NCBI GenBank assembly: GCA_020720765.1
Contig: DYOB01000003.1
Location: 3,170-67,169 of the forward strand
Source of the DNA: Borreliella garinii
GTDB taxonomy: Bacteria > Spirochaetota > Spirochaetia > JABEVK01
Direction of reading: 5' to 3'
DNA length: 64,000 nt
A model generated the notes under the pieces. That model saw only the letters and a program-made list of their open reading frames with translations, did no database searches and was not told where the DNA came from. Positions 1,382 through 51,810 of the stretch are shown here, piece by piece. Both the position numbers and the translations under genes were made by a program. Numbering within the stretch: position 1 is the first letter of the stretch; the number at the start of each line of letters is the position of its first letter.

Positions 1382-2380
1382 TTAATGGGAAGTTTTTTTC
1401 AAACTCTTTTGCCTACGGCCCATCTGTGAAAAAACTATCATGGCTATGACGCCACCAAGTATCATCAAAAAGCTGAAAATTTGACCCGTTGAAAAATTCC
1501 ACGGAGAAATAATCAGATGGCTGGTGAGAATTCCGCCCTGGCTGTTCATAATGGCCTGTGGGTCCAACATGATGGGAAAGTCCATTCCTGCATCTGGGGT
1601 TCTGAGATATTCAACGACAAACCTCGCTACTCCATACCCGATGATGTAGGCGGAAAGGTAAAATCCTTTGAACATGTCCCTCTTTGAGAAGACCAACCAG
1701 AAAATTAAAAAGATCAGAATACCTTCTGAAAAAGCCTCGTAAAGCTGACTGGGGTGACGCGGCAGGTTAACCATACCGTTGATAACTGCGCTGTCTGGAA
1801 TTCCCGTTTGGGCCATGACTTCCTTAACCCAGGGCTCCCTCACAGAAAGCATGCTTCCAGTGGGAAAAATCATCCCCCAAGGTACCGTTGTAACTCTTCC
1901 ATAGAGTTCGCCGTTGATAAAATTCCCCAGCCGGCCGAAGGTGTAGCCTAAAGGTACCCCGTAAACGATCATATCCGACCACTGAAGGAGGTCAATTTTT
2001 TTCCATCGGGTATAGATTAAAGCTCCAACTAGCGCTCCAACAAAGCCCCCGTGGTAGCTTAACCCCTGAAAACCGAATGAACCGTCACGGTTGAAGGGCC
2101 AAAAGATCTCCCAGGGGTGGGTCCAATAATAACCGTCAGGGGTATAAACCAAGGTACCAAAAAGCCTTGCACCCAGCATCAAACCGACAATTAAAAAAGT
2201 GAAAAATTGTCCTGTCTGGTCTTTGCTGATATCCAGACCTTTTGCCTTCACCTGCCGCCTGAAAAGGATGTAGGTAATTCCAAAGGCGACAAGGTACATT
2301 ACAGCATACCAGCGGAAGGGTAGAATTCCAGGCAAAATCTCGGGTTTGAGCCAAGAAGGAAATTCTATATAATTGATCAA
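1382..2380 (-). CDS. lgt: Prolipoprotein diacylglyceryl transferase
   Basis: 332 aa polytopic membrane protein carrying the Lgt signature FGRLGNFINGELYGRVTTVPWGMIFP. Confidence 0.9.
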   Translation of the reverse strand: MINYIEFPSWLKPEILPGILPFRWYAVMYLVAFGITYILFRRQVKAKGLDISKDQTGQFFTFLIVGLMLGARLFGTLVYTPDGYYWTHPWEIFWPFNRDGSFGFQGLSYHGGFVGALVGALIYTRWKKIDLLQWSDMIVYGVPLGYTFGRLGNFINGELYGRVTTVPWGMIFPTGSMLSVREPWVKEVMAQTGIPDSAVINGMVNLPRHPSQLYEAFSEGILIFLIFWLVFSKRDMFKGFYLSAYIIGYGVARFVVEYLRTPDAGMDFPIMLDPQAIMNSQGGILTSHLIISPWNFSTGQIFSFLMILGGVIAMIVFSQMGRRQKSLKKTSH

Positions 2381-5304: not shown

Positions 5305-6444
5305 TCACAAACGAACCCCTGCCTGAAGAGCTTTTACAACCTTGGATTTTAAAAGGAGGTTTTCTTTTCGAAGCTGGGTTATTTCCAACTGTTGGGTTCT
5401 CACGGTTTCGACGAGATCGCCCATAGAAAGCGTACCGGAATCCAGTAGGTCTTCTAAAAACTCTACCCGGGATTCAAAATCAACTTCAGCTTCCTGGCTG
5501 GCAGTCTGGAAATTTTCATCCAGAAATTCCCAGTCCAAGGGACCGTCATCGAGACCCTCCGTCGAGATAATTTTTTCAGAGATGCGATAGATGGCCTGGC
5601 TTAATACGCTCTGGGGTTTGTAAAGAACAATTGGCAGGCGCGCGCCTAAAGCGATATCCTGGAGTTCGTCCCGGTAGATCACCCCCAAATGATCGAGTTC
5701 TATTCCCAAGTATTCCCTGCATGACCGCCTGACTTTTGCCGCTTTTTCAGCGTCTTCAGGATGTTCCAGCATATTAAACACCAATCTCGGTTGAAACTTT
5801 CCAACTGCGTTGTTAAAGGCTTGTGCGCTAACAGGGTCTTTTTCCTTAACCGTCTCAAGGAATCTTGGCAAATACAGTTTTTGGGCCTGGGATCCGCTCG
5901 TTAAGATTTTATTGAGTTGCTCTTTTGCCCAGGAACCTTTTTTAAAACTCGTATCCAATAACCTGAATACAGCGTTTTTAAGAAAAAAATAGGCGTTAAG
6001 CGTAGCGGTTAAGGTCGGTGTCGTTACAACAATACCCCTGCTGGAAGTGAGAAAACTATCGACAGTGTTGGTGCTTGTACCTGCACCCAAGTCCATAATA
6101 AGGTAATCAGCCTCAAGATTGAGAAGATTTTTTAGGAGTTTGTTTTTTTGTTGGAATTTTATATTTGCCATTCCGGGAATTTCAGAGTCTCCTGGAAGGA
6201 ACTGAAGATTGGGTACATCTGTATCCAGGAGAAGCTTGTTGAGCGCTACCCCCTCAAAGAGAAAGGAACCTATTCCCTGGGGAATGGCCCTCAATCCCAA
6301 AATCAAATGCAGGTTCGAACCGCCCAGGTCAAGATCTGTGAGAATCACCTTTTTTCCAGCTTGAGCCAATGCAATTGAGAGGTTGGCAGAAAGAAGGGAT
6401 TTCCCTACCCCGCCTTTTCCGCTGGCTATGGGAATAATATGCAT
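5305..6444 (-). CDS. MinD/ParA-family P-loop ATPase with C-terminal coiled-coil extension
   Basis: N-terminal deviant Walker A IASGKGGVGKS; 379 aa. The start overlaps the upstream gene stop (TAATG). Confidence 0.75.
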   Translation of the reverse strand: MHIIPIASGKGGVGKSLLSANLSIALAQAGKKVILTDLDLGGSNLHLILGLRAIPQGIGSFLFEGVALNKLLLDTDVPNLQFLPGDSEIPGMANIKFQQKNKLLKNLLNLEADYLIMDLGAGTSTNTVDSFLTSSRGIVVTTPTLTATLNAYFFLKNAVFRLLDTSFKKGSWAKEQLNKILTSGSQAQKLYLPRFLETVKEKDPVSAQAFNNAVGKFQPRLVFNMLEHPEDAEKAAKVRRSCREYLGIELDHLGVIYRDELQDIALGARLPIVLYKPQSVLSQAIYRISEKIISTEGLDDGPLDWEFLDENFQTASQEAEVDFESRVEFLEDLLDSGTLSMGDLVETVRTQQLEITQLRKENLLLKSKVVKALQAGVRL

Positions 6445-6896
6445 TACCTAGGCTCCTTGCCAACTATGGCTGATGCATGGATTTGCCTAAAAATCAGGTA
6501 CACAACCAAAGAAGAAAAGAGGGCGCTTAAAAATAAATACCCGCCCCATTTAACAAGGATTTCAGACTGGGGGGGGAAGTCAAAGAACTTAGGCAGTAAA
6601 ATAATACTAAATTTTATAAAATTCAGGACAACGTTCACAGCGCCAAGGGGATATAATTCCTTAATTTCCCTATAAAATATGTACATAGGTAGAAAACTTG
6701 CATAGGCAGAAAATGCCAGCACGAAAAGCGCTGAGGTAAATGGGTCCGGCATCAAGTCCCTCATCACAAGGAAAACAAAAAAAAGCAGAGATAAAAGAGA
6801 AAGTGCTTCCAGGGCAATAAGAAAAGGTTTTGGCTGAAATTGCATGTTTTCATTGTATGAGGGGTATCCAGTAGGGTCAAGGCGTTGACAAAGCAT
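6444..6896 (-). CDS. Hypothetical integral membrane protein
   Basis: 150 aa with about four hydrophobic helices. Translationally coupled to the downstream ParA-like gene. Confidence 0.4.
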   Translation of the reverse strand: MLCQRLDPTGYPSYNENMQFQPKPFLIALEALSLLSLLFFVFLVMRDLMPDPFTSALFVLAFSAYASFLPMYIFYREIKELYPLGAVNVVLNFIKFSIILLPKFFDFPPQSEILVKWGGYLFLSALFSSLVVYLIFRQIHASAIVGKEPR

Positions 6897-6919
6897 CGTG
6901 AAAAAATAACTATCTTAGA

Positions 6920-8347
6920 ATGAAAACTTATTGGAAACTTGGGCTTTTCGCCCTAGCAGGAATCCTTCTTACAGCCTTCCTTGTTTTTACCCCTTTTCTT
7001 ACTGCACAGACCCCGTCCATCGTTCCACAGGGTACAAACTCCACCTCGACCTACGCACAAATGTTCCAAACAGCAATGAACTTTGTTCTTACACGGTATG
7101 TGGACGAACCGGATCCCCAGGTACTTTTCGAGGGCGCGATGAAGGGCATGCTGGAAGCTCTCGACGACCCCTATACCGCCTATCTTAATGAATCCGATTA
7201 CAGAGGCCTTACCGATACAACGCAAGGTGAATTCGGGGGGGTCGGTCTTTTTATCAATAAAGTCAGTTTAAGCCAAATACGTCCTGATGGCCCTATAACA
7301 CAATATTTTGTGGAAGTCGTAAGCCCCATCGACGACACCCCGGCTCATAGGGCGGGAATTCTGGCTGGCGACTTTATCACCGATATCGAAGGGGAAAGTG
7401 TGAAAACCCTTGAAATGGACGAAGTCCTTAAAAAACTACGCGGCAGACCGGGCTCTCCTGTAATAATCACCATCCTCAGGCAGGATACTATCACGTTTGA
7501 TGTCACCCTCAACAGAGCCATCATTGAGGTTCCCAGTGTGCGTCATCAAATGATCGATGATATCGGTTATTTAAGAATCCTTCAGTTCACCTCCCACACA
7601 GCCGAAAGAACCGAAGCCGCCCTGAAGGATATTGTGTCTAAAAATCCTAAAGCTCTCATCCTCGATCTTCGTTCGAACCCGGGCGGGCTTCTTGGCTCTG
7701 TTGTCCAGGTTGCCGACTTTTTCTTTCCCGAAGGCACTCTCGTTAGCACCCGATCCCGCAACCCTAGAGAAAACCAGACTTTCCCGGCCTCGGTCGGGTA
7801 CGAATTCTCTCCGACTCTTCCCATTGTTGTCCTCATCGATAAAGGCAGTGCAAGCGCATCTGAAATTCTTGCCGGCGCGATGAAGGATAGAAAACGCGCC
7901 TTCTTGATTGGTGAAACATCTTACGGTAAGGGATCTGTTCAGCAGGTTGTACCTTTTGGCCGAACGGGTTTCAGAATGACAACAGCCAGGTATTACACCC
8001 CCAACGATATAAGTATCGATAAAATCGGCGTAGTTCCCGACAAAGAAATAAAGATACCCGACCTCACAGAGTCGGAACAGGACGCTTTTAAAAAGCTTAT
8101 GCAGTCCGGAAGAATCGAACTACTCGTAAGACAGGTTACAAAACCAACACCCGATCAAATGCAAAGCTGGGTGGTGAGGCTTCAAAATGAAGGGTTTTCC
8201 CTGGAACAGAGGATACTTAGAAGGTTGATTCAAAATGAAGTCAACCGTGTCAATAATATTTCTCCTCCTTCCGTGGACCTTGAATATGACCTCGTGCTTT
8301 CCCAAACCCTGGATTTGATCCGGCAAGGACAAATACCCCGTTTGTGA
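6920..8347 (+). CDS. ctp: Carboxyl-terminal processing protease (S41 family, PDZ domain)
   Basis: Signal/TM at the N-terminus, a PDZ region, and the S41 catalytic motif GSASASEILAGAMKD. Confidence 0.85.
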   Translation: MKTYWKLGLFALAGILLTAFLVFTPFLTAQTPSIVPQGTNSTSTYAQMFQTAMNFVLTRYVDEPDPQVLFEGAMKGMLEALDDPYTAYLNESDYRGLTDTTQGEFGGVGLFINKVSLSQIRPDGPITQYFVEVVSPIDDTPAHRAGILAGDFITDIEGESVKTLEMDEVLKKLRGRPGSPVIITILRQDTITFDVTLNRAIIEVPSVRHQMIDDIGYLRILQFTSHTAERTEAALKDIVSKNPKALILDLRSNPGGLLGSVVQVADFFFPEGTLVSTRSRNPRENQTFPASVGYEFSPTLPIVVLIDKGSASASEILAGAMKDRKRAFLIGETSYGKGSVQQVVPFGRTGFRMTTARYYTPNDISIDKIGVVPDKEIKIPDLTESEQDAFKKLMQSGRIELLVRQVTKPTPDQMQSWVVRLQNEGFSLEQRILRRLIQNEVNRVNNISPPSVDLEYDLVLSQTLDLIRQGQIPRL

Positions 8348-9090
8348 AACAACTCGTTCTTGACATTTCCCCGGAAGATGGTGCAAGCCTACAACTGACG
8401 GGGGAAACTTTCCACTATCTCGTCAATGTACGCCGCGAGAAAACGGGTCACGTGATTTCTACATTGTCTCCGAACGGCACCCCCGGCCGTTTATTGATAC
8501 AGGAAATAGGAAAAGATTTTCTGCTAGGGGAATGGAAATCGCTTGATTTGAAGAACACAAAAGAAAGACATTTGACTGTGACCCTTTACCCGGCCGCCCT
8601 AAAAGGTAACAAACTCGACGATGTTCTTCGCCAAAGTGTCGAATCCGGGATTGCCTCCTGGCACCCTTGGATAGCACATCATTCCATCAGCAGGCCGGAT
8701 TCTGAAAGAGGAAGGGAACGTTGGTTGAAAATCACCAGGGAAGCCCTTCAGCAATCCGGTCGTACGACACCTGTGGAGACAATAGGTTATTCAGACTATA
8801 CTCAGATGTGTGTGCGTTGGCGGGTGGAGAAGACTCTTTTGGTTTTCCACCATGAACCTCTTCATAGTGTTGGTTTTCATTCTGTTCTTAGGGATGATGT
8901 TTCCCAGGTTGGTTTGGTTTTTGGCCCGGAGGGCGGTTTGAACCGGGAAGAAGTTCTGTTTTTCCAGGATATCAACGCTCATTTTATCTGGCTTGGTTCC
9001 GGGATTTTACGTAGTGAAACAGCGATTATTTATTCATTGGGTGCAATAAAAACTATTTTTCAGGAGAAAGCCTTATGGAAAACCCCATAG
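8344..9090 (+). CDS. rsmE: 16S rRNA (uracil1498-N3)-methyltransferase
   Basis: 248 aa with the C-terminal SPOUT motif LVFGPEGGL. Overlaps the ctp stop by 4 nt. Confidence 0.75.
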   Translation: MKQLVLDISPEDGASLQLTGETFHYLVNVRREKTGHVISTLSPNGTPGRLLIQEIGKDFLLGEWKSLDLKNTKERHLTVTLYPAALKGNKLDDVLRQSVESGIASWHPWIAHHSISRPDSERGRERWLKITREALQQSGRTTPVETIGYSDYTQMCVRWRVEKTLLVFHHEPLHSVGFHSVLRDDVSQVGLVFGPEGGLNREEVLFFQDINAHFIWLGSGILRSETAIIYSLGAIKTIFQEKALWKTP

Positions 9091-40310: not shown

Positions 40311-40395
40311 GGAGAGGTGGCAGAGTGGTCGATTGCGGCAGTCTTGAAAACTGTTGGGCCGCGAGGTCCCGTGGGTTCGAATCCCACCTTCTCCG
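40311..40395 (+). tRNA. tRNA-Ser (anticodon TGA), class II long variable arm
   Basis: Hand-folded. Acceptor GGAGAGG/CCTTCTCC, anticodon loop CT-TGA-AA, 19-nt variable arm, T-loop TTCGAAT. Confidence 0.7.
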
Positions 40396-40405
40396 AAGAC
40401 AAATA

Positions 40406-40493
40406 GGAGCGGTGCCAGAGTGGCCGAATGGGGCGCCCTGCTAAGGCGTTGTACCCCTCAAGGGTACCGAGGGTTCGAATCCCTCCTGCTCCG
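40406..40493 (+). tRNA. tRNA-Ser (anticodon GCT), class II
   Basis: Acceptor GGAGCGG, anticodon loop CT-GCT-AA, long variable arm, T-loop TTCGAAT. Confidence 0.7.
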
Positions 40494-40497
40494 TATT

Positions 40498-40571
40498 GTG
40501 CCCATAGCTCAGTTGGATAGAGCGTCAGATTGCGGATCTGAAGGTCGGAGGTTCGAATCCTCTTGGGCATA
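40498..40571 (+). tRNA. tRNA-Arg (anticodon read as GCG)
   Basis: Acceptor GTGCCCA/TGGGCAT, D-arm GCTCAGTTGGATAGAGC, anticodon loop TT-GCG-GA, 5-nt variable region, T-loop TTCGAAT. Confidence 0.6.
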
Positions 40572-40586
40572 TTGCCGTAAGAGCAA

Positions 40587-40671
40587 GGAGAGATGGCCGA
40601 GTGGCTTAAGGCGCACGCTTGGAAAGCGTGTATACGGAAACGTATCAGGGGTTCGAATCCCCTTCTCTCCG
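40587..40671 (+). tRNA. tRNA-Ser (anticodon GGA), class II
   Basis: Acceptor GGAGAGA, anticodon loop TT-GGA-AA, long variable arm, T-loop TTCGAAT. Confidence 0.7.
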
Positions 40672-40681
40672 TCCCTTTAGT

Positions 40682-40782
40682 GACTGTCGGGCCCTACGCT
40701 ATCGGCTGACACCCAACCCCGCCAGGATCGGAAGGTAGCAACGGTAAGTGCTCGGCGATGTGCCGTAATCGGTTTGACAGGA
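40682..40782 (+). ncRNA. ffs: Probable small SRP RNA (4.5S/ffs)
   Basis: Domain-IV-like core CCGCCAGGATC-GGAA-GGTAGCAACGG at 40718..40746 resembles E. coli CCAGGUCC-GGAA-GGAAGCAGCC (GNRA tetraloop plus symmetric loop). The termini pair (40684 CTGTCGGGCC with 40771 GGTTTGACAG). ffs–dnaX–ybaB–recR synteny is known. Confidence 0.5.
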
Positions 40783-48026: not shown

Positions 48027-49301
48027 ATGCAACGGACCCTTATTTCTCAGCTTGAAAGTCTTGCGGGACAGACTGTTTCGGTTTCTGGATGGGTCCACCG
48101 TATCCGGGAACTGGGGAAGATCAGCTTCGTGATCCTTCGTGACCGAAGCGGAATGGTGCAGCTTGTCTTTGATACTAAACCCGAATTCACCCTGGAATCT
48201 GTGATTACCGTCAGCGGCACAGTCCAGAAAAACGAAAAGGCGCCTATGGGGGTTGAAATAACCGCGGAAAAAATAGAGGTGTTAGCAGCCGCGGCCCCCG
48301 ATTTACCCATTCCAGTAAATCAAGATCCAGATAAGCACAATATCGACTCCATCCTCGATAATAGGATTATCTCTCTGAGAAACCCAAAGATCAGGGCCAT
48401 CTTTGAATTACAAAGTGGGTTGCTTCTGGCTCTTTCCCGTTTTATGCACGCAGAAGGGTTTCGGGAAATGAAAACAAGTAAGCTGATAGGTAGCGGTACT
48501 GAAGGCGGTACGGGTCTTTTCACGGTGGAATATTTTGATACTAAAGTTTTTCTTGCGCAAAGCCCCCAGTTTTACAAGCAGGCCATGGTTTCAAGCGGCT
48601 TGGAGAGGGTTTTCGAGATCAGTCATGCTTACCGTGCGGAAAAGCACGATACTCCCAGGCATTTGAATGAATACGTCTCTTTCGACGTAGAAATGGCCTT
48701 TATAGAAAGCGAACTAGATTTGATCGAGTTTGAAAAAAGGCTCCTAGCGTACGTTTTTGATGAAATCGGGAAGAATTACGCACCTCAACTTGAAATGTGG
48801 GGGGCCAAAGTTCCTGAACAGGGTTATATGGAGAAGGTTCCAACCGTGGACCATGAAACCGCGAAAGATATCATCAGTAAGGAGTTAGGGCACAAGGTTT
48901 ATGAAATTACCCCCGAGGGTGAACGTGCGTTATGCGATTGGGCCCAAAAAGAACACGGGGCGGACGCTGCATTTATTAACGACTGGCCGAGAAAGAAGCG
49001 GCCCTTTTATACTTTTCCGAGAGACCAGAAAACCATGAGTTTTGATCTTATTTTCCGCGGCTTGGAAATCACTACCGGCGGACGCAGGATCAATGAATAC
49101 CCCATGCTTATCGACGCACTATCTAAATTTGGAATGACGGAATCAGGCCTCGAAGATTATGCTACGATCTTCAAATACGGCTGTCCCCCTCACGGGGGAT
49201 TTGCCATAGGGGTGGAGAGGCTGACCCAAAAGATCCTGGGTATGGATAACGTAAAACTCGCCTCTCCCTTTCCCCGCGACCGAAAACGCGTTCGGCCGTA
49301 A
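48027..49301 (+). CDS. aspS: Aspartate--tRNA ligase, short archaeal/type-2 form (probably non-discriminating)
   Basis: 424 aa, lacking the bacterial GAD insertion. N-terminal OB fold and class II motifs (FRGLEITTGGRR, GGFAIGVERL). 1 nt after gatB. Confidence 0.85.
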   Translation: MQRTLISQLESLAGQTVSVSGWVHRIRELGKISFVILRDRSGMVQLVFDTKPEFTLESVITVSGTVQKNEKAPMGVEITAEKIEVLAAAAPDLPIPVNQDPDKHNIDSILDNRIISLRNPKIRAIFELQSGLLLALSRFMHAEGFREMKTSKLIGSGTEGGTGLFTVEYFDTKVFLAQSPQFYKQAMVSSGLERVFEISHAYRAEKHDTPRHLNEYVSFDVEMAFIESELDLIEFEKRLLAYVFDEIGKNYAPQLEMWGAKVPEQGYMEKVPTVDHETAKDIISKELGHKVYEITPEGERALCDWAQKEHGADAAFINDWPRKKRPFYTFPRDQKTMSFDLIFRGLEITTGGRRINEYPMLIDALSKFGMTESGLEDYATIFKYGCPPHGGFAIGVERLTQKILGMDNVKLASPFPRDRKRVRP

Positions 49302-49308
49302 TTATACA

Positions 49309-51306
49309 TTAATCAAAGAAATCGTCTTCGACCTCAAAAAATTTGGGGTCGATTTCAAAGAATTTCTCCACATCGACCATGAAAAAATCGTTTTCAACGA
49401 AGTTGTCAAAAAATTGGTCGCTGTTTGAGAAAAACTCGTCGTTCTTAAAGGCGTCTGCCGAGCTATTAAAGCGTTCTTCTTGGCTTTGCTGGAATTGTCC
49501 AAAATAAGAGTCATCCGCATACCGGGTATTTCTTCTTCTTACAGTGTTCGTCGAGAACCCCATCACATAATCCACCGAAGGGCTCATCACTTGGCCGGCG
49601 ACGGCGACAATGGAATAATAGTTGGGGTTGGTGTTTGCGGTTCTGTGGATAAACCTGGGTTCTTGTGTTTCACCCAGGGGTTCATAACGGCTTGTCCTGA
49701 TGTTCAGAAGTGAAACAATGTATTTCTGAGCGTTGGGAGTGGGGCGCCACGTGATTTCTACTCGGTCTGTGAATTGTCCCTGGGACGCCCTGACCCCGCG
49801 AACAGCGCGCAGGCTCGTAACAGAGACAGCCGGAACAGGGTTCTTTGGGGGGGGCGTCGTGGGTGTTGTGGTTGTTGGTGTCGTCGGTGTGGTAGGAGTA
49901 GTCGGCGTCGTTGTAACTGGGGGGGGGGGGATAACCGGAGGAGGAAGGGTAATTGTTATAGAGATACTCGCACTCGAAGCGCTTTCCTCTTCTCCTTTCG
50001 CGGCAGAAACGACGTACCAATAACTGGCCGAGGCCGAAGGAAGGGTCGAATCCTGGAAACCGACGTCACGGCTTGTACCGATAAGACGGAATTTTTCGGC
50101 GGTATTATCCCACCTGTAGACGTTATATCTTTCCGCGTTGGCCACGGCGTCCCACAGGATTTTAACCAGGGTGCCCTCAGTAAGGGCCTGGATATTTTGA
50201 GGAATACCGAGAACTTGGGGTACTTGGAGAAAACCGTTTGCTATAGGGCTGAAATCGCTATCACCGCCCACACCGAAACTTTTTACGGTGTAATAGTACA
50301 TTTTTCCCTGTTGGACCTGTCTATCGATATAAACATTCCCTTGGGTTCGTGCTATTTCAGAAAAGGGACCGGTATTGGCTTCTCCCCTAAAAACTATGTA
50401 ACCTTCCGAGTTTTGAACTTCGCCCCAGGAAATCTGGATTCTATCGGCGAAGGCGCCGAGACTTGCCTGGCTAGTTGAAGGCGGTAAGCTCTTATTGGGG
50501 CGGCTGATAACGCGCCCTTTCATGACCACGGCGGTATGGGTGAGTTCGCCAAAAGTACCGTAAGCCACCCATCCGTAGCCGTTTTCACCCCAACGGTTCG
50601 ACCAGGAGTTGATGATAAGAAAGGCTCCCTTGCTGTCATCGTAGCCAATGGCACTCATAGCGTGGCCGCCAAGGTACGCGCCGCTGGTGCCGTTGTAAAC
50701 ACCGCCGCGGTAGTTCGTAAAATTCTCATAGGTCCGCATGCCGAAAATGATCACGTTTCCGGCTGCCAAGACGGCTTTGAGCGCCTGTGTGTTTTTGGGA
50801 TCCAGGGATTCATACGAATCAGTTGTATAATTTGAGGCCTCGTTCCTTGCGGCCTGCCCCGGCTGGGCGCGGAAATCAAGGGTATAAGGCATGGTTTGAA
50901 GGGTTGCAGCACCGGTATTTTTTATTAGGTCAACAGCCCTGACAATAGAAGATCCCTGGTCCTGGCCTCCGTTGATTTGGTTGTAGATAAAGGACGGGGA
51001 GAAAATTTTATCCTGGCTGTTTACTCCCCAGCCCCTAGCCGCATTTTCCTGGTGGGTTTTAGCGGCATAAGCCACTGCCCAACCTACGCAGCTATTGATT
51101 CTATCCTGGTAACCCGGTGCAGGTAAAAGGTTCCTATGGTCCACCAGGCGGGGAAGCTGGCCGGAACTTGGGCTTGCACTCGCACCGGCTATGGAATTTT
51201 GCAGGACAACCGGAACAGGTTGGGACCCCAACGATTTCTGGGGTGCTTGTGCAAAAACACTTCCAACCATAACACCCATAATGACGAGGTTGAATAATTT
51301 TTTCAT
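49309..51306 (-). CDS. Secreted papain-family (C1) cysteine peptidase with three Fn3 domains, Pro/Thr linker and acidic FF-repeat C-terminal tail
   Basis: Signal peptide. Catalytic Cys QDRINSCVGWAVAYA, His GGHAMSAIGYDD, Asn NSWSNRWGENGYGW; no long propeptide. Three Fn3-like modules. Linker PPPVIPPPPVTTTPTTPTTPTTPTTTTPTTPPPKNP. Tail with six acid-flanked FF dipeptides. Confidence 0.7.
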   Translation of the reverse strand: MKKLFNLVIMGVMVGSVFAQAPQKSLGSQPVPVVLQNSIAGASASPSSGQLPRLVDHRNLLPAPGYQDRINSCVGWAVAYAAKTHQENAARGWGVNSQDKIFSPSFIYNQINGGQDQGSSIVRAVDLIKNTGAATLQTMPYTLDFRAQPGQAARNEASNYTTDSYESLDPKNTQALKAVLAAGNVIIFGMRTYENFTNYRGGVYNGTSGAYLGGHAMSAIGYDDSKGAFLIINSWSNRWGENGYGWVAYGTFGELTHTAVVMKGRVISRPNKSLPPSTSQASLGAFADRIQISWGEVQNSEGYIVFRGEANTGPFSEIARTQGNVYIDRQVQQGKMYYYTVKSFGVGGDSDFSPIANGFLQVPQVLGIPQNIQALTEGTLVKILWDAVANAERYNVYRWDNTAEKFRLIGTSRDVGFQDSTLPSASASYWYVVSAAKGEEESASSASISITITLPPPVIPPPPVTTTPTTPTTPTTPTTTTPTTPPPKNPVPAVSVTSLRAVRGVRASQGQFTDRVEITWRPTPNAQKYIVSLLNIRTSRYEPLGETQEPRFIHRTANTNPNYYSIVAVAGQVMSPSVDYVMGFSTNTVRRRNTRYADDSYFGQFQQSQEERFNSSADAFKNDEFFSNSDQFFDNFVENDFFMVDVEKFFEIDPKFFEVEDDFFD
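49919..49930. repeat. Homopolymeric G12 tract (C12 on the coding strand, encoding PPPP) inside the C1 peptidase gene. A G8 tract at 49843..49850 lies in the same linker
   Basis: Read directly: ...gtaactggggggggggggataacc... It is the longest homopolymer in the window. Confidence 0.9.
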
Positions 51307-51680
51307 CGAATCTCTCCTTGATTTGTTAAAGGCGCTTCTAATTCCGCCAATTCAATTTTACCATCAATATCGTGAAAATACGTGGCGCGTAGGGATTTTT
51401 CACCCTCCTGGTCGGAGTAGGTCATCGTTAGACGGACCTGGAAACCCGCCACGACCTGAGATTCCACCTTCTGGACGGTTTTGAGAGTCCAGGAAGGGTG
51501 AGATTCTCTGACAAGGGTTTTTAAAAGCTCCAAATCCGAAAGGGCCGTGTCCCAAGTTAAAGGCTGTTCTGTCCAGCCTCCAACAAGGGTGTTTCCAGAA
51601 TCTGAAGGGGGGGCTACTGCGTCGTTTCCAACACAGCCAAAGAGTACAAAGACGTAAATGATATAAAGGGGGAACTTCAT
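51303..51680 (-). CDS. Cystatin-like lipoprotein, putative inhibitor of the downstream C1 peptidase
   Basis: 125 aa with a lipoprotein-type signal (VLFGC). N-terminal Gly-rich segment (LVGGW) and an exact canonical cystatin/stefin hairpin motif QVVAG (ESQVVAGFQVRL). Its stop overlaps the peptidase start by 4 nt. Confidence 0.5.
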   Translation of the reverse strand: MKFPLYIIYVFVLFGCVGNDAVAPPSDSGNTLVGGWTEQPLTWDTALSDLELLKTLVRESHPSWTLKTVQKVESQVVAGFQVRLTMTYSDQEGEKSLRATYFHDIDGKIELAELEAPLTNQGEIR

Positions 51681-51711
51681 TGCACCAGTATGGTCCCGTT
51701 CTTGTAAAATT

Positions 51712-51810
51712 TCAATAAAAGACGAGGGCCATATAAGGCAGGAAAACCAGGAAACTCAAGAAGGTAACGGGAGCAACCGCTCCAACGAGAGCAATGGTGG
51801 TCCTGTTCAT
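51712..51810 (-). CDS. Possible 32-aa hydrophobic micropeptide (MNRTTIALVGAVAPVTFLSFLVFLPYMALVFY)
   Basis: Hand-translated; a single predicted TM helix with no convincing RBS. Speculative. Confidence 0.2.
   Translation of the reverse strand: MNRTTIALVGAVAPVTFLSFLVFLPYMALVFY

Follow-up and report, generated by a model that had tools for sequence, protein, structure and literature searches.

Organisation of the locus

In this study we focus on two adjoining genes on the reverse strand of a 64,000-nucleotide stretch of DNA, hereafter the window, whose features are collected in Table 1. The first encodes a small lipoprotein-type precursor and the second a secreted cysteine peptidase of the C1A family; both reading frames, their coordinates and their four-nucleotide overlap agree with the original prediction made for this DNA. 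Within the overlap, the TGA stop codon of the small gene (51303..51305) shares bases with the ATG start codon of the peptidase gene (51304..51306), yielding ATGA, and an AGGAG Shine-Dalgarno sequence sits 8 nt 5' of that ATG. A weak sigma-70-like match directly upstream of the small gene is a candidate operon promoter, a consensus scan being no evidence of function. From its sequence the locus is most likely an operon of two genes in a Spirochaetia bacterium, with the gene of a cystatin-superfamily lipoprotein first and that of the peptidase second.

Table 1 Features of the cystatin-peptidase locus (positions in the window; cleavage sites marked by a slash)
Feature	Position	Strand	Basis or remark
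Gene, 125-aa cystatin-superfamily lipoprotein precursor (stefin-like domain, no disulfides)	51303..51680	-	
Signal peptide with lipobox-type Cys16 (MKFPLYIIYVFVLFG/C)	51633..51680	-	direct reading; putative lipoprotein
Flexible tether, aa 17-31 (VGNDAVAPPSDSGNT), lipid anchor to cystatin domain	51588..51632	-	model pLDDT <50
N-terminal trunk LVGGW, aa 32-36, first cystatin contact segment	51573..51587	-	conserved Gly-Gly
QVVAG, first hairpin loop (L1), aa 75-79, second cystatin contact segment	51444..51458	-	sequence and model
FHDID, second hairpin (L2), motif [FY][HK]D[ILV], at the site of the cystatin PW	51363..51377	-	β4-β5 hairpin in model
Weak sigma-70-like promoter match TTGAAA-17-CATACT	51687..51715	-	consensus scan only, 9/12 matches
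ATGA stop/start overlap of inhibitor and peptidase genes	51303..51306	-	sequence; translational coupling
AGGAG Shine-Dalgarno of peptidase gene, within 3' end of inhibitor gene	51314..51318	-	sequence
Gene, 665-aa secreted multidomain C1A (xylellain-type) cysteine peptidase	49309..51306	-	
Type I signal peptide, aa 1-19 (...VFA/QAP)	51250..51306	-	direct reading; predicted
N-terminal extension of ~31 residues (QAPQKSLGSQPVPVVLQNS...), no I29 propeptide	51157..51249	-	conserved in four orthologs
Papain-fold catalytic domain	50512..51156	-	Pfam, AF2, Foldseek
Catalytic Gln67	51106..51108	-	
Catalytic Cys73	51088..51090	-	
Catalytic His215	50662..50664	-	
Catalytic Asn233	50608..50610	-	
Catalytic-set Trp235		-	
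Fn3-like module 1	50224..50463	-	12-module profile vs PDB
Fn3-like module 2	49948..50205	-	12-module profile vs PDB
Fn3-like module 3	49552..49821	-	12-module profile vs PDB
Pro/Thr-rich linker, aa 454-495	49822..49947	-	direct reading; variable length in orthologs
C-terminal Phe/acidic tail, 6 'FF' dipeptides	49312..49515	-	conserved in four orthologs

Homology and fold of the small protein

The small ORF begins with MKFPLYIIYVFVLFGC; a lipobox-type cysteine, Cys16, closes this signal peptide. Nearly all single-domain relatives likewise have a cysteine at the end of the hydrophobic segment, in keeping with a putative lipid attachment, and the tether that follows differs among relatives in both length and sequence.

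As a single sequence the 125-residue protein gave no PF00031 match in Pfam at E<=1 and stayed below every threshold of the Pfam cystatin clan (SQAPI, PF16845, 13.3 bits vs a cut-off of 31), while a phmmer search of the PDB placed the tick cystatin OmC2 on top at only E=0.021. An exhaustive HMMER search of 1.84 billion representative proteins returned 37 relatives, with 38 matches in all at E<=1e-3, and three of the relatives, P0122, P0128 and P0130, pass the Pfam cystatin model PF00031 (E=4.6e-46, 2.5e-16 and 1.1e-15, respectively). Moreover, a profile built from 18 single-domain members matched 38 PDB sequences, every one of them from the cystatin superfamily and comprising cystatins, stefins and the cystatin-derived Adhiron/Affimer scaffolds; potato multicystatin was the best match (1.2e-15), followed by tick cystatins (~1e-7) and stefin A (2e-4, full length). 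The cystatin relationship proposed for this protein is hence visible at the profile level.

The AF2 model, with a core pLDDT >90, has the topology β1-α-β2-(QVVAG)-β3-β4-β5, a long helix packed on a five-stranded antiparallel β-sheet. This is the α+β wedge that had been anticipated, and QVVAG lies at the tip of the β2-β3 hairpin, the first of the fold, and is not buried in a helix. Foldseek ranks 1-31 are cystatins throughout, including inhibitors solved with papain and cathepsins; further fold matches include monellin and CRES, latexin and NTF2-like proteins also appear, and chagasin is not among the structural matches listed. Profiles and model together identify the small protein as a true cystatin-superfamily protein, a finding that homology and fold evidence place far beyond chance.

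The QVVAG motif taken by itself is no more than suggestive: it occurs once in the six frames of the window, against 0.04 occurrences expected from shuffles. A chance pentapeptide in an unrelated ORF was considered and has practically no probability left, being ruled out by the PDB profile matches and the fold comparison.

Three segments correspond to those by which cystatins contact their targets. The N-terminal segment had been described as Gly-rich, which is incorrect; what it contains is the Gly-Gly pair conserved in the N-terminal trunk of cystatins. The trunk Gly is invariant in alignments of 18 and of 28 sequences, the Gly of LVGGW is kept in the peptidase-paired clade, and the GG aligns with that of tick cystatins. 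An N-terminal LVGG is shared with human cystatin C and tick cystatins, and a QVVAG on the first hairpin with the cystatin superfamily. The exact QVVAG had been read correctly, and its Q, V and G are invariant among relatives. As also predicted, the second hairpin lacks the Pro-Trp of type 2 cystatins; the Leu-Pro of stefins is equally absent, and the β4-β5 hairpin carries FHDID, in which, across the paired clade, the Asp is invariant and the Phe/Tyr and His positions are conserved.

Apart from the lipobox Cys16, direct reading finds no cysteine in the mature cystatin domain, so the two C-terminal disulfides of type 2 cystatins are not present, and a signal peptide is. The size of about 100 residues and the lack of disulfides are those of stefins, whereas stefins have no signal peptide and the small protein bears a bacterial lipoprotein signal and a tether. 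By these sequence features it is stefin-like in its domain but no classical stefin. With I25 cystatins at large (OmC2, 3L0R; tarocystatin-papain, 3IMA; chicken cystatin-falcipain-2, 1YVB; stefins A and B) it has fold and profile homology in common, and it departs from them in lacking PW or LP, in its clade-specific [FY][HK]D[ILV], in its operon with a presumed target and in scoring below the Pfam threshold when searched alone.

A xylellain-type peptidase

The second gene product matches Pfam Peptidase_C1 (PF00112) with E=8.9e-18 (65.6 bits vs a cut-off of 20.7), and PDB sequence matches also support its C1A assignment. The Gln/Cys/His/Asn papain catalytic set that had been noticed in it holds up: Gln67, Cys73 and His215 do not vary across 78 family members, Asn233 and Trp235 are nearly invariant, and in the alignment with papain the His and Asn fall on His159 and Asn175. 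Furthermore, the equivalents of papain Trp177 and Trp181 are conserved in the alignment with papain. In papain these two tryptophans are contacted by cystatins, and with its catalytic set intact the peptidase is, from its sequence, a plausible cystatin target.

The catalytic domain is modelled by AF2 with pLDDT >90. Foldseek returned 297 PDB matches at E<=1e-3, the best 50 of the 297 being all papain-family; the top match is xylellain from Xylella fastidiosa (3OIS, E=1.8e-19, TM 0.80, whole chain), and the peptidase family profile matches xylellain with E=4.9e-36 in an alignment that extends into the N-terminal extension. Xylellain and other short bacterial C1A peptidases of its type likewise have a catalytic domain with a short N-terminal extension in place of the I29 prodomain. 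The peptidase of the window goes beyond this architecture in having three Fn3-like modules, a Pro/Thr linker, a Phe/acidic tail, a signal peptide and a cystatin partner gene. Single Fn3-like modules miss the Pfam threshold (fn3, E=0.15), and a profile of 12 modules from four orthologs finds the 'Fn3-like protein' 3MPC (E=3.7e-11) and titin Fn3 in the PDB; the three modules and the linker of the original prediction are therefore in place. The C-terminal tail has no Pfam match.

The enzyme had also been called propeptide-less. This is right in that no propeptide family, I29 included, was found by Pfam at E<=1, and just 31 residues separate the signal peptide from LPRLVD, a papain-like mature N-terminus. 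It is incomplete in that these residues form a conserved xylellain-like extension with a short helix, modelled at pLDDT ~90, which is possibly a mini pro-segment. Leite et al. reportedly observed in 2013 that part of the xylellain N-terminal sequence blocks its own active site, and by analogy an extension of this type may already give the peptidase latency. The argument that the absence of a propeptide calls for a separate inhibitor is weakened by this extension.

Recurrence of the pair and its proposed function

A C1 peptidase gene adjoins the cystatin gene at 7 of the 13 loci examined (the window, L006, L007, L008/L010, L011, L012 and L013), which fall into four independent genomic contexts: the syntenic window, L012 and L013; L011; L006; and L007/L008. 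Among the pairs, which include those of syntenic Spirochaetia MAGs, the genes occur in two orders and the peptidases belong to two C1 subfamilies. The window, L006 and L012 share the ATGA overlap; in L011 and L013 a short spacer with GGAGG/AGGAG takes its place, and in L007/L008 the peptidase gene comes first, with a 280-nt gap. The neighbourhood survey thus answers one of the questions on which the prediction had hung, homologs lying repeatedly next to C1 peptidases and often with the same overlap. No C1 peptidase was found near the other six cystatin-family loci (L014-L019), and no cystatin gene accompanies the closest peptidase homologs (L003-L005), so that the pairing is specific to a single clade and each partner can occur without the other. 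Prokaryotic genomes mostly have a single C1A gene (PMC10380794), which makes chance adjacency negligible. In gene arrangement, on the same strand, contiguous and recurrent across taxa, the pair resembles bacterial protease-inhibitor modules.

Between syntenic genomes the cystatin protein is 34-41% identical, vs 65-68% for the peptidase and 71-77% for housekeeping neighbours, and by these comparisons its gene is inherited vertically inside the Spirochaetia clade. Among paired members conservation is concentrated on LVGGW, ExQVVAG and [FY][HK]D[ILV], the remainder being variable.

From sequence and model, the lipoprotein is probably a cognate, envelope-tethered, reversible tight-binding inhibitor of the co-encoded peptidase, itself predicted to be Sec-exported. 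Export signals are present on both proteins, which would therefore meet outside the cytoplasm. An N-terminal lipid and the flexible tether of about 15 residues would hold the inhibitor on a membrane, and its wedge, made of the LVGG trunk, the QVVAG first hairpin and the HD[IL] second hairpin, would enter the active-site cleft of the peptidase; the latter would be kept silent, and perhaps docked, in the cell envelope until its release to the site of action. The lipoprotein might, moreover, dock a surface-deployed, prodomain-poor protease to the membrane and act as its latency switch. The protease-inhibitor pair of the original prediction is in this way supported by fold, homology and adjacency, while its descriptions as propeptide-less and undescribed stand only in part. 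Whether dedicated, operon-encoded, lipid-anchored cystatins regulate the papain-family peptidases of their own cells in this Spirochaetia clade and in at least one lineage with a different C1 subfamily is a nearly even question, tilting slightly towards no.

Several observations count against cognate inhibition: the absent PW, the sub-threshold Pfam score, the 6 of 13 unpaired loci, the cystatin-free L003-L005, the xylellain-type extension and the published anti-host view (PMC2784779). This last view, the 'emergency inhibitor' hypothesis of Kordis & Turk for bacterial cystatins and stefins (PMC2784779), would make the lipoprotein a true cystatin-type inhibitor whose targets are papain-like proteases of other organisms (host, grazer or competitor), and which is co-expressed with the peptidase only through a shared action at the cell surface. 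The contact motifs of the lipoprotein are of the kind by which eukaryotic C1 enzymes are recognised, many family members have no adjoining C1 peptidase, and the fast divergence (34-41% vs 65-77% for the neighbours) would also suit an arms race. A shared surface location nevertheless fails to explain four contexts, two gene orders, two C1 subfamilies and ATGA coupling; the paired loci are metagenome or MAG records that carry no host information in the data examined, and such a role is compatible with self-inhibition as well. We regard an exclusively foreign target as unlikely.

A role mainly as folding helper or membrane dock, in which the lipoprotein stands in for the I29 prodomain or tethers the enzyme and is no regulatory inhibitor, also has a low probability. 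It would suit a peptidase that lacks an I29 propeptide and, save for its unexplained C-terminal tail, an obvious anchor of its own, as well as an inhibitor gene that comes first and is translationally coupled, and the lipid anchor and flexible tether fit docking. Against this, close peptidase homologs have no cystatin partner, which indicates that folding generally needs none, and in L007/L008 the peptidase gene precedes, 280 nt away; conservation falls on the protease-blocking wedge, docking at the active site would itself be inhibition, and a limited check of the literature found no chaperone role for the cystatin fold. It is more improbable still that the protein has a cystatin fold but is non-inhibitory, as monellin and CRES are, and that its link to the peptidase is inherited gene order with no functional coupling. 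The fold is indeed common to many non-inhibitory proteins (monellin, CRES, latexin, NTF2-like), PW is missing and the single sequence falls under the Pfam thresholds. Stefins also lack PW, yet they inhibit; the motifs of inhibitory cystatins, N-terminal Gly and QVVAG, are invariant and correctly placed, and the two genes remain paired where synteny is lost (L011, L006), the pairing extending also to a second C1 subfamily.

Bacterial stefins and cystatins, some of them in Spirochaetes (Brachyspira), were catalogued by Kordis & Turk in 2009, who saw them as anti-host inhibitors acquired by horizontal transfer and considered endogenous regulation of bacterial C1 peptidases unlikely; in the published view the endogenous inhibitors of bacterial C1 enzymes are the chagasins, and the 2009 work makes no mention of operons or gene adjacency (PMC2784779). 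The small protein shares with the catalogued members its superfamily, conserved motifs and a patchy, rare distribution, and differs from them in that its gene is coupled to that of a C1A peptidase and is vertically inherited in a Spirochaetia clade. Our literature search found no published description of a cystatin-C1 peptidase operon, so the pair may be called undescribed, but bacterial cystatins as such may not (PMC2784779). The recurrent pairing of cystatins with papain-type enzymes suggests that bacteria control their own proteases with cystatins, which the literature has judged unlikely. If cognate inhibition is true, prokaryotes would have here their first endogenous regulatory pair of a cystatin and a C1A enzyme. 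Two published inferences would then be overturned, namely that bacterial cystatins are directed solely at proteases of the host and that no endogenous C1 inhibitors exist apart from chagasins, and the question whether the cystatin-papain partnership predates eukaryotes would be open again.

As with chagasin (I42), endogenous inhibition of a C1 peptidase by cleft-occluding loops is presumed here. Chagasins are Ig-like β-sandwiches with a three-loop mode, whereas in the small protein this work would fall to a trunk at the N-terminus and two hairpins of a cystatin fold, and cystatins obstruct the cleft without binding as a substrate does (PMC7863939). Co-transcribed bacterial cysteine-protease/inhibitor pairs are known, including Bacteroides lipoprotein inhibitors (PMC3462683). 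In staphopain-staphostatin (C47/I57), SpeB-Spi (C10/I69) and Bacteroides Bfp/Btp-Bfi/Bti, as in the window, a small inhibitor gene (~110-140 aa) directly adjoins the gene of a papain-fold protease; the inhibitor can be upstream or downstream, and those of Bacteroides are exported lipoproteins (PMC3462683). The staphostatin-staphopain parallel drawn for this locus extends to its module-like layout; the model has a cystatin fold and not the I57 β-barrel, and the locus holds no I57 member. The pair in the window is set apart from these modules by its inhibitor fold, a cystatin α+β wedge vs the staphostatin β-barrel and the propeptide-like Spi, by its protease family, C1A vs C47 or C10, and by the export signal of the small protein, staphostatins and Spi being cytoplasmic.

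Fold and family of the small lipoprotein

The two reading frames of the pair were found at the positions and lengths of the original prediction (see table). The smaller encodes a protein whose N-terminus, MKFPLYIIYVFVLFGC, reads as a hydrophobic signal peptide with a lipobox-type cysteine (Cys16) at its end, followed by a low-complexity tether. The six-frame translation of the window contains one QVVAG against 0.04 expected from shuffles, so this motif by itself is only suggestive, and the assignment made here rests on homology, fold and pairing.

Taken alone, the small protein matches in Pfam only SQAPI, a family of the cystatin clan, at E=0.12, below the curated threshold; NCBIfam returned no match for it or for the peptidase, and a word-indexed search of 5.8 billion proteins returned only the protein itself. 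A phmmer search against PDB sequences ranked the tick cystatin OmC2 (3L0R) first (E=0.021), with an alignment spanning GGW through QVVAG. Moreover, an exhaustive HMMER search of 1.84 billion representative proteins gave 37 relatives at E<=1e-3, three of which pass the Pfam Cystatin model (P0122, with multiple repeats, E=4.6e-46; P0128, 2.5e-16; P0130, 1.1e-15). The single-domain relatives resemble bacterial lipoproteins, with a signal peptide running to a cysteine, a variable linker and the pattern GG[WF]...QVVAG...[FY]xDL. A profile of 18 of these sequences matched 38 distinct PDB sequences, all from the cystatin superfamily (cystatins, stefins and the cystatin-derived Adhiron/Affimer scaffolds), with E-values of 1.2e-15 for potato multicystatin and about 1e-7 for several tick cystatins; oryzacystatin, cystatin C and stefin A, the latter over its full length, were matched as well.

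The AlphaFold2 model, computed from 28 sequences, has pLDDT values above 90 across residues 21-100 of the mature protein and displays the order beta1, long helix, beta2, three-residue loop, beta3, beta4, beta5. The cystatin wedge that had been anticipated is thus present in the model, with QVVAG (mature residues 59-63) exactly at the tip of the beta2-beta3 hairpin and not buried in a helix. Foldseek against the PDB gave cystatins at all ranks from 1 to 31, some of them taken from crystal structures of complexes with papain or with cathepsins V and K. A chance motif as the reading of QVVAG is ruled out by these structural matches and by the cystatin-only profile matches in the PDB, and membership of the chagasin or staphostatin families was rejected on structural matches, the fold being the wrong one.

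Profile homology, fold, the N-terminal glycine and QxVxG together make the small protein a member of the cystatin superfamily; it lacks the PW/LP feature, fits the definition of neither type 1 nor type 2 and lies below single-sequence Pfam thresholds. Within the superfamily its domain is stefin-like, with about 100 residues and without disulfides or PW. Since the protein is exported by a predicted signal peptide, and disulfides are absent, it is neither a classical type 1 nor a classical type 2 cystatin. Among the relatives, P0122, P0124 and P0129 (1,194-1,337 aa) are multicystatin-like, with 8-11 tandem copies related to the cystatin domain of the small protein; P0122 passes PF00031, and P0124 and P0129 give scattered spurious Pfam matches only.

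In the members adjacent to a peptidase, the invariant or near-invariant segments are the [LV]GGW trunk, ExQVVAG, an Arg/Leu just past the hairpin, and [FY][HK]D[ILV] at the beta4-beta5 hairpin, while the helix and the surface of the sheet are free to vary. The trunk and the two hairpin segments are the three protease contacts of the 'elephant-trunk' model of cystatin binding, which are made by the N-terminal trunk and by the first and second loops (PMC7863939). A clade-specific HD[IL] stands in the position of PW. Between syntenic genomes, identity is 34-41% for the cystatin, 65-68% for the peptidase and 71-77% for housekeeping neighbours, values that point to rapid change of the putative inhibitor everywhere but in its contact motifs. 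Fast divergence with three short motifs retained suggests that it could be a compact scaffold for specificity studies.

The partner peptidase

The larger protein matches Peptidase_C1 (PF00112, hmmscan E=8.9e-18) and, by sequence, many papain-family structures. The full catalytic machinery that had been proposed was confirmed by aligning 78 members of the family: Gln67, Cys73 and His215 do not vary, and Asn233 and Trp235 hardly do. BLASTP against papain aligned the His/Asn half only, and there the counterparts of papain His159, Asn175, Trp177 and Trp181 are His215, Asn233, Trp235 and Trp239. The AlphaFold2 model of the full-length enzyme is very confident at residues ~20-270, with pLDDT below 50 over the C-terminal 390 residues. 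The closest structural match of the catalytic domain is xylellain, from Xylella fastidiosa (PDB 3OIS; E=1.8e-19, TM 0.80 over the whole chain). A family profile also matches xylellain (E=4.9e-36), which assigns the enzyme to the bacterial C1A peptidases that Kordis & Turk 2023 (PMC10380794) call 'xylellain-type'.

Pfam finds no I29 propeptide in the peptidase, and there are just 31 residues between the signal-peptide cleavage site and LPRLVDHR, which corresponds to the mature N-terminus of papain. This extension (SLGSQPVPVVLQNS...) is kept in four orthologs and modelled with pLDDT of ~90, and the profile alignment with xylellain reaches into it. In the xylellain structure of Leite et al. 2013, part of the N-terminal sequence reportedly blocks the active site. 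The description of the enzyme as propeptide-less is therefore only partly right: an I29 prodomain is absent, but there is a conserved, confidently modelled extension, into which the xylellain alignment reaches and which may be a short pro-segment.

Because the model has no confident C-terminal 390 residues, the claim of three Fn3 modules was tested by sequence profile. Each beta-rich module is sub-threshold alone (fn3 E=0.15), and a profile of 12 modules from four orthologs matches Fn3 domains in the PDB (3MPC, E=3.7e-11; titin; neogenin), in support of the claim. The Pro/Thr linker is conserved in the orthologs. A conserved Phe/acidic tail, which has no Pfam match, ends the window enzyme and likewise those of L011, L012 and L013, and no other sequence compared carries it; the tail may serve in sorting or anchoring.

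In the contig record the precomputed Pfam field is empty for the window peptidase, yet hmmscan gives the match cited for it, and a look-up of its exact 665-aa sequence reports no entry in the protein collection. The cause is probably a gap in bookkeeping, through which annotation-based surveys would miss the pair.

Gene coupling and recurrence of the pair

The stop codon of the cystatin gene overlaps the peptidase start, and the peptidase ATG has an AGGAG 8 nt before it. A scan of the locus gave weak promoter matches and terminators at or below shuffle expectation.

Coordinates of the gene pair and associated features (window positions unless a locus is named)
Feature	Location	Strand	Description
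Small protein gene	51303..51680	-	125 aa
Peptidase gene	49309..51306	-	665 aa
LVGGW	aa 32-36 of small protein	-	
QVVAG	51444..51458 (aa 75-79 of small protein)	-	exact motif
ATGA overlap	51303..51306	-	cystatin TGA stop / peptidase ATG
Phe/acidic C-terminal tail	49312..49515	-	~70 residues; 5-7 'FF' dipeptides; FFxNSDxFFDNFxxxDFFxVDVExFF...
Peptidase stop codon	49309..49311	-	
End of convergent aspS	49301		
Convergent ends of peptidase and aspS genes	49301..49311		
Hydrophobic mini-ORF	51712..51810	-	32 aa
Four-tRNA cluster and small SRP RNA gene	40311..40782	+	
Window peptidase in L001 (window pair)	6375..8372		empty Pfam field
Cystatin-like P0155 / P0002	L006 (another metagenome)		ATGA overlap; P0002 is closest homolog of window peptidase, 51% identity
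P0002 and HSP33 fragment	L006 745..1431 and 1412..1777		
Cystatin-like lipoprotein gene	L011, L012 (two Spirochaetia MAGs), L013		directly upstream of C1 peptidase ORF
Cystatin gene	L007, L008/L010		downstream of C1 peptidase of different subfamily, upstream of pyruvate kinase
Region with different-subfamily C1 peptidase	L007 3..1526; L008 3..1535		active site GSEGSCTCFA; His motif IDHAQTIVGF
Tandem C1 peptidases P0004, P0015	L003 4001..5464 and 5790..7259		
Permease gene	L013 4644..5894		416 aa

As had been expected for a functional pair, homologs of the small protein lie next to C1 peptidases, and among the 13 cystatin-family loci examined the pairing recurs in the closest clade; an alignment-based related-locus search returned 2+2 loci. 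The peptidases of L011, L012 and L013 (673-705 aa) have the same architecture as the window enzyme, with an ATGA junction in L012 and spacers of 11-16 nt with GGAGG/AGGAG in L011 and L013. The gene order of the window (DAHP synthase-AlgH-rhodanese-cystatin-peptidase, with aspS-gatB-gatA running towards the pair from the other strand) is shared by L012 and L013, and the pair is kept in L011 and L006 without such synteny; with L007/L008, this gives four independent contexts. In L006, P0002 ends right after the catalytic His (...GYDDSKNA*), without the Asn/Trp region, and an HSP33 fragment overlaps next; the explanation is a truncated pseudogene or else a chimeric assembly. In L007, the stretch separating the peptidase and cystatin genes holds a called ORF of 139 aa.

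Pairing is not universal: seven loci of the cystatin family are paired and six unpaired. No C1 peptidase was found in the flanks of the more distant members L014 to L019, of which L015 and L018 are two-domain proteins and L016 is a Flavobacteriaceae-type protein. Outside the clade, no cystatin accompanies the nearest homologs of the peptidase; the tandem paralogs P0004 and P0015 of L003, 46-48% identical to the window catalytic domain, have no cystatin-like ORF within 4 kb.

Proposed role of the pair and other features of the locus

Cystatins are endogenous inhibitors of eukaryotic papain-family proteases. To our knowledge, bacterial homologs are few and the function of none has been established by experiment. 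In this bacterium, placed in the Spirochaetia on the basis of L011 and L012 and of the 71-77% identity of housekeeping genes, one message would yield first the cystatin, as a lipoprotein, and next the C1A peptidase, exported by Sec, both reaching the extracytoplasmic side. The cystatin, putatively lipidated and tethered there, would block the active-site cleft with its wedge and so keep the peptidase inactive, and perhaps attached to the envelope, until it is released. From sequence and models, the lipoprotein is probably an envelope-tethered inhibitor of the co-encoded peptidase, a reading supported by homology, fold, motif placement and conservation, the intact catalytic set, gene coupling and recurrence. 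The idea of a protease-inhibitor pair survived each computational check run, inhibition itself being a proposal.

Inhibition of foreign proteases, a published idea for bacterial cystatins ('emergency inhibitor'), is an unlikely role for this protein. Kordis & Turk 2009, the single systematic study of these proteins, which reports bacterial stefins and cystatins in eight phyla including Spirochaetes, read them as horizontally acquired anti-host factors and regard regulation of bacterial enzymes as unlikely; their paper makes no mention of operons or gene adjacency (PMC2784779), and here the inhibitor gene is coupled to that of a C1A enzyme. A chaperone or dock replacing the missing prodomain is improbable too. 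A role other than inhibition for the cystatin-fold protein is less likely still: the absence of PW speaks for it, the retained contact motifs against it. Chance adjacency is negligible because most prokaryotic genomes carry a single C1A gene (PMC10380794).

The favoured reading, an inhibitor of the co-encoded peptidase, has functional likeness, by analogy, to staphopain-staphostatin, SpeB-Spi and especially the Bacteroides Btp-Bti pairs, which are co-transcribed. However, the inhibitor fold of those pairs differs, so the small protein is not a member of the staphostatin, Spi or Bti families, and the cystatin fold would be a fourth structural solution among known bacterial protease/inhibitor gene pairs. 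Bacterial stefins and cystatins as such are already known; no description of a bacterial cystatin-C1 peptidase operon was found in the open-access literature. The locus is probably a bacterial protease/inhibitor operon, in which a lipoprotein of cystatin fold is paired with a C1A enzyme of the xylellain type. Conserved and translationally coupled, it offers a first concrete candidate for a cystatin target within the bacterium itself and turns the question of bacterial cystatin role into a two-protein experiment. It is also a natural system for how a bacterium handles a papain-type enzyme without a classical prodomain, and were inhibition absent, it would still be a well-defined case of a non-canonical cystatin-fold lipoprotein.

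Several minor features were observed around the pair. Only 7 nt separate the ends of the peptidase gene and of the convergent aspS, and the scan of this gap gave no convincing intrinsic terminator. The 204-nt rhodanese-cystatin spacer holds a hydrophobic mini-ORF, MNRTTIALVGAVAPVTFLSFLVFLPYMALVFY, which resembles an N-terminal stretch (...FRMNRSTLSLVGAIFLLAL...) of the permease at the same position in the syntenic L013; judging from this resemblance, the mini-ORF is probably what remains of a transporter gene that was deleted. Elsewhere in the window, a cluster of four tRNA genes is directly followed by a small SRP RNA gene.
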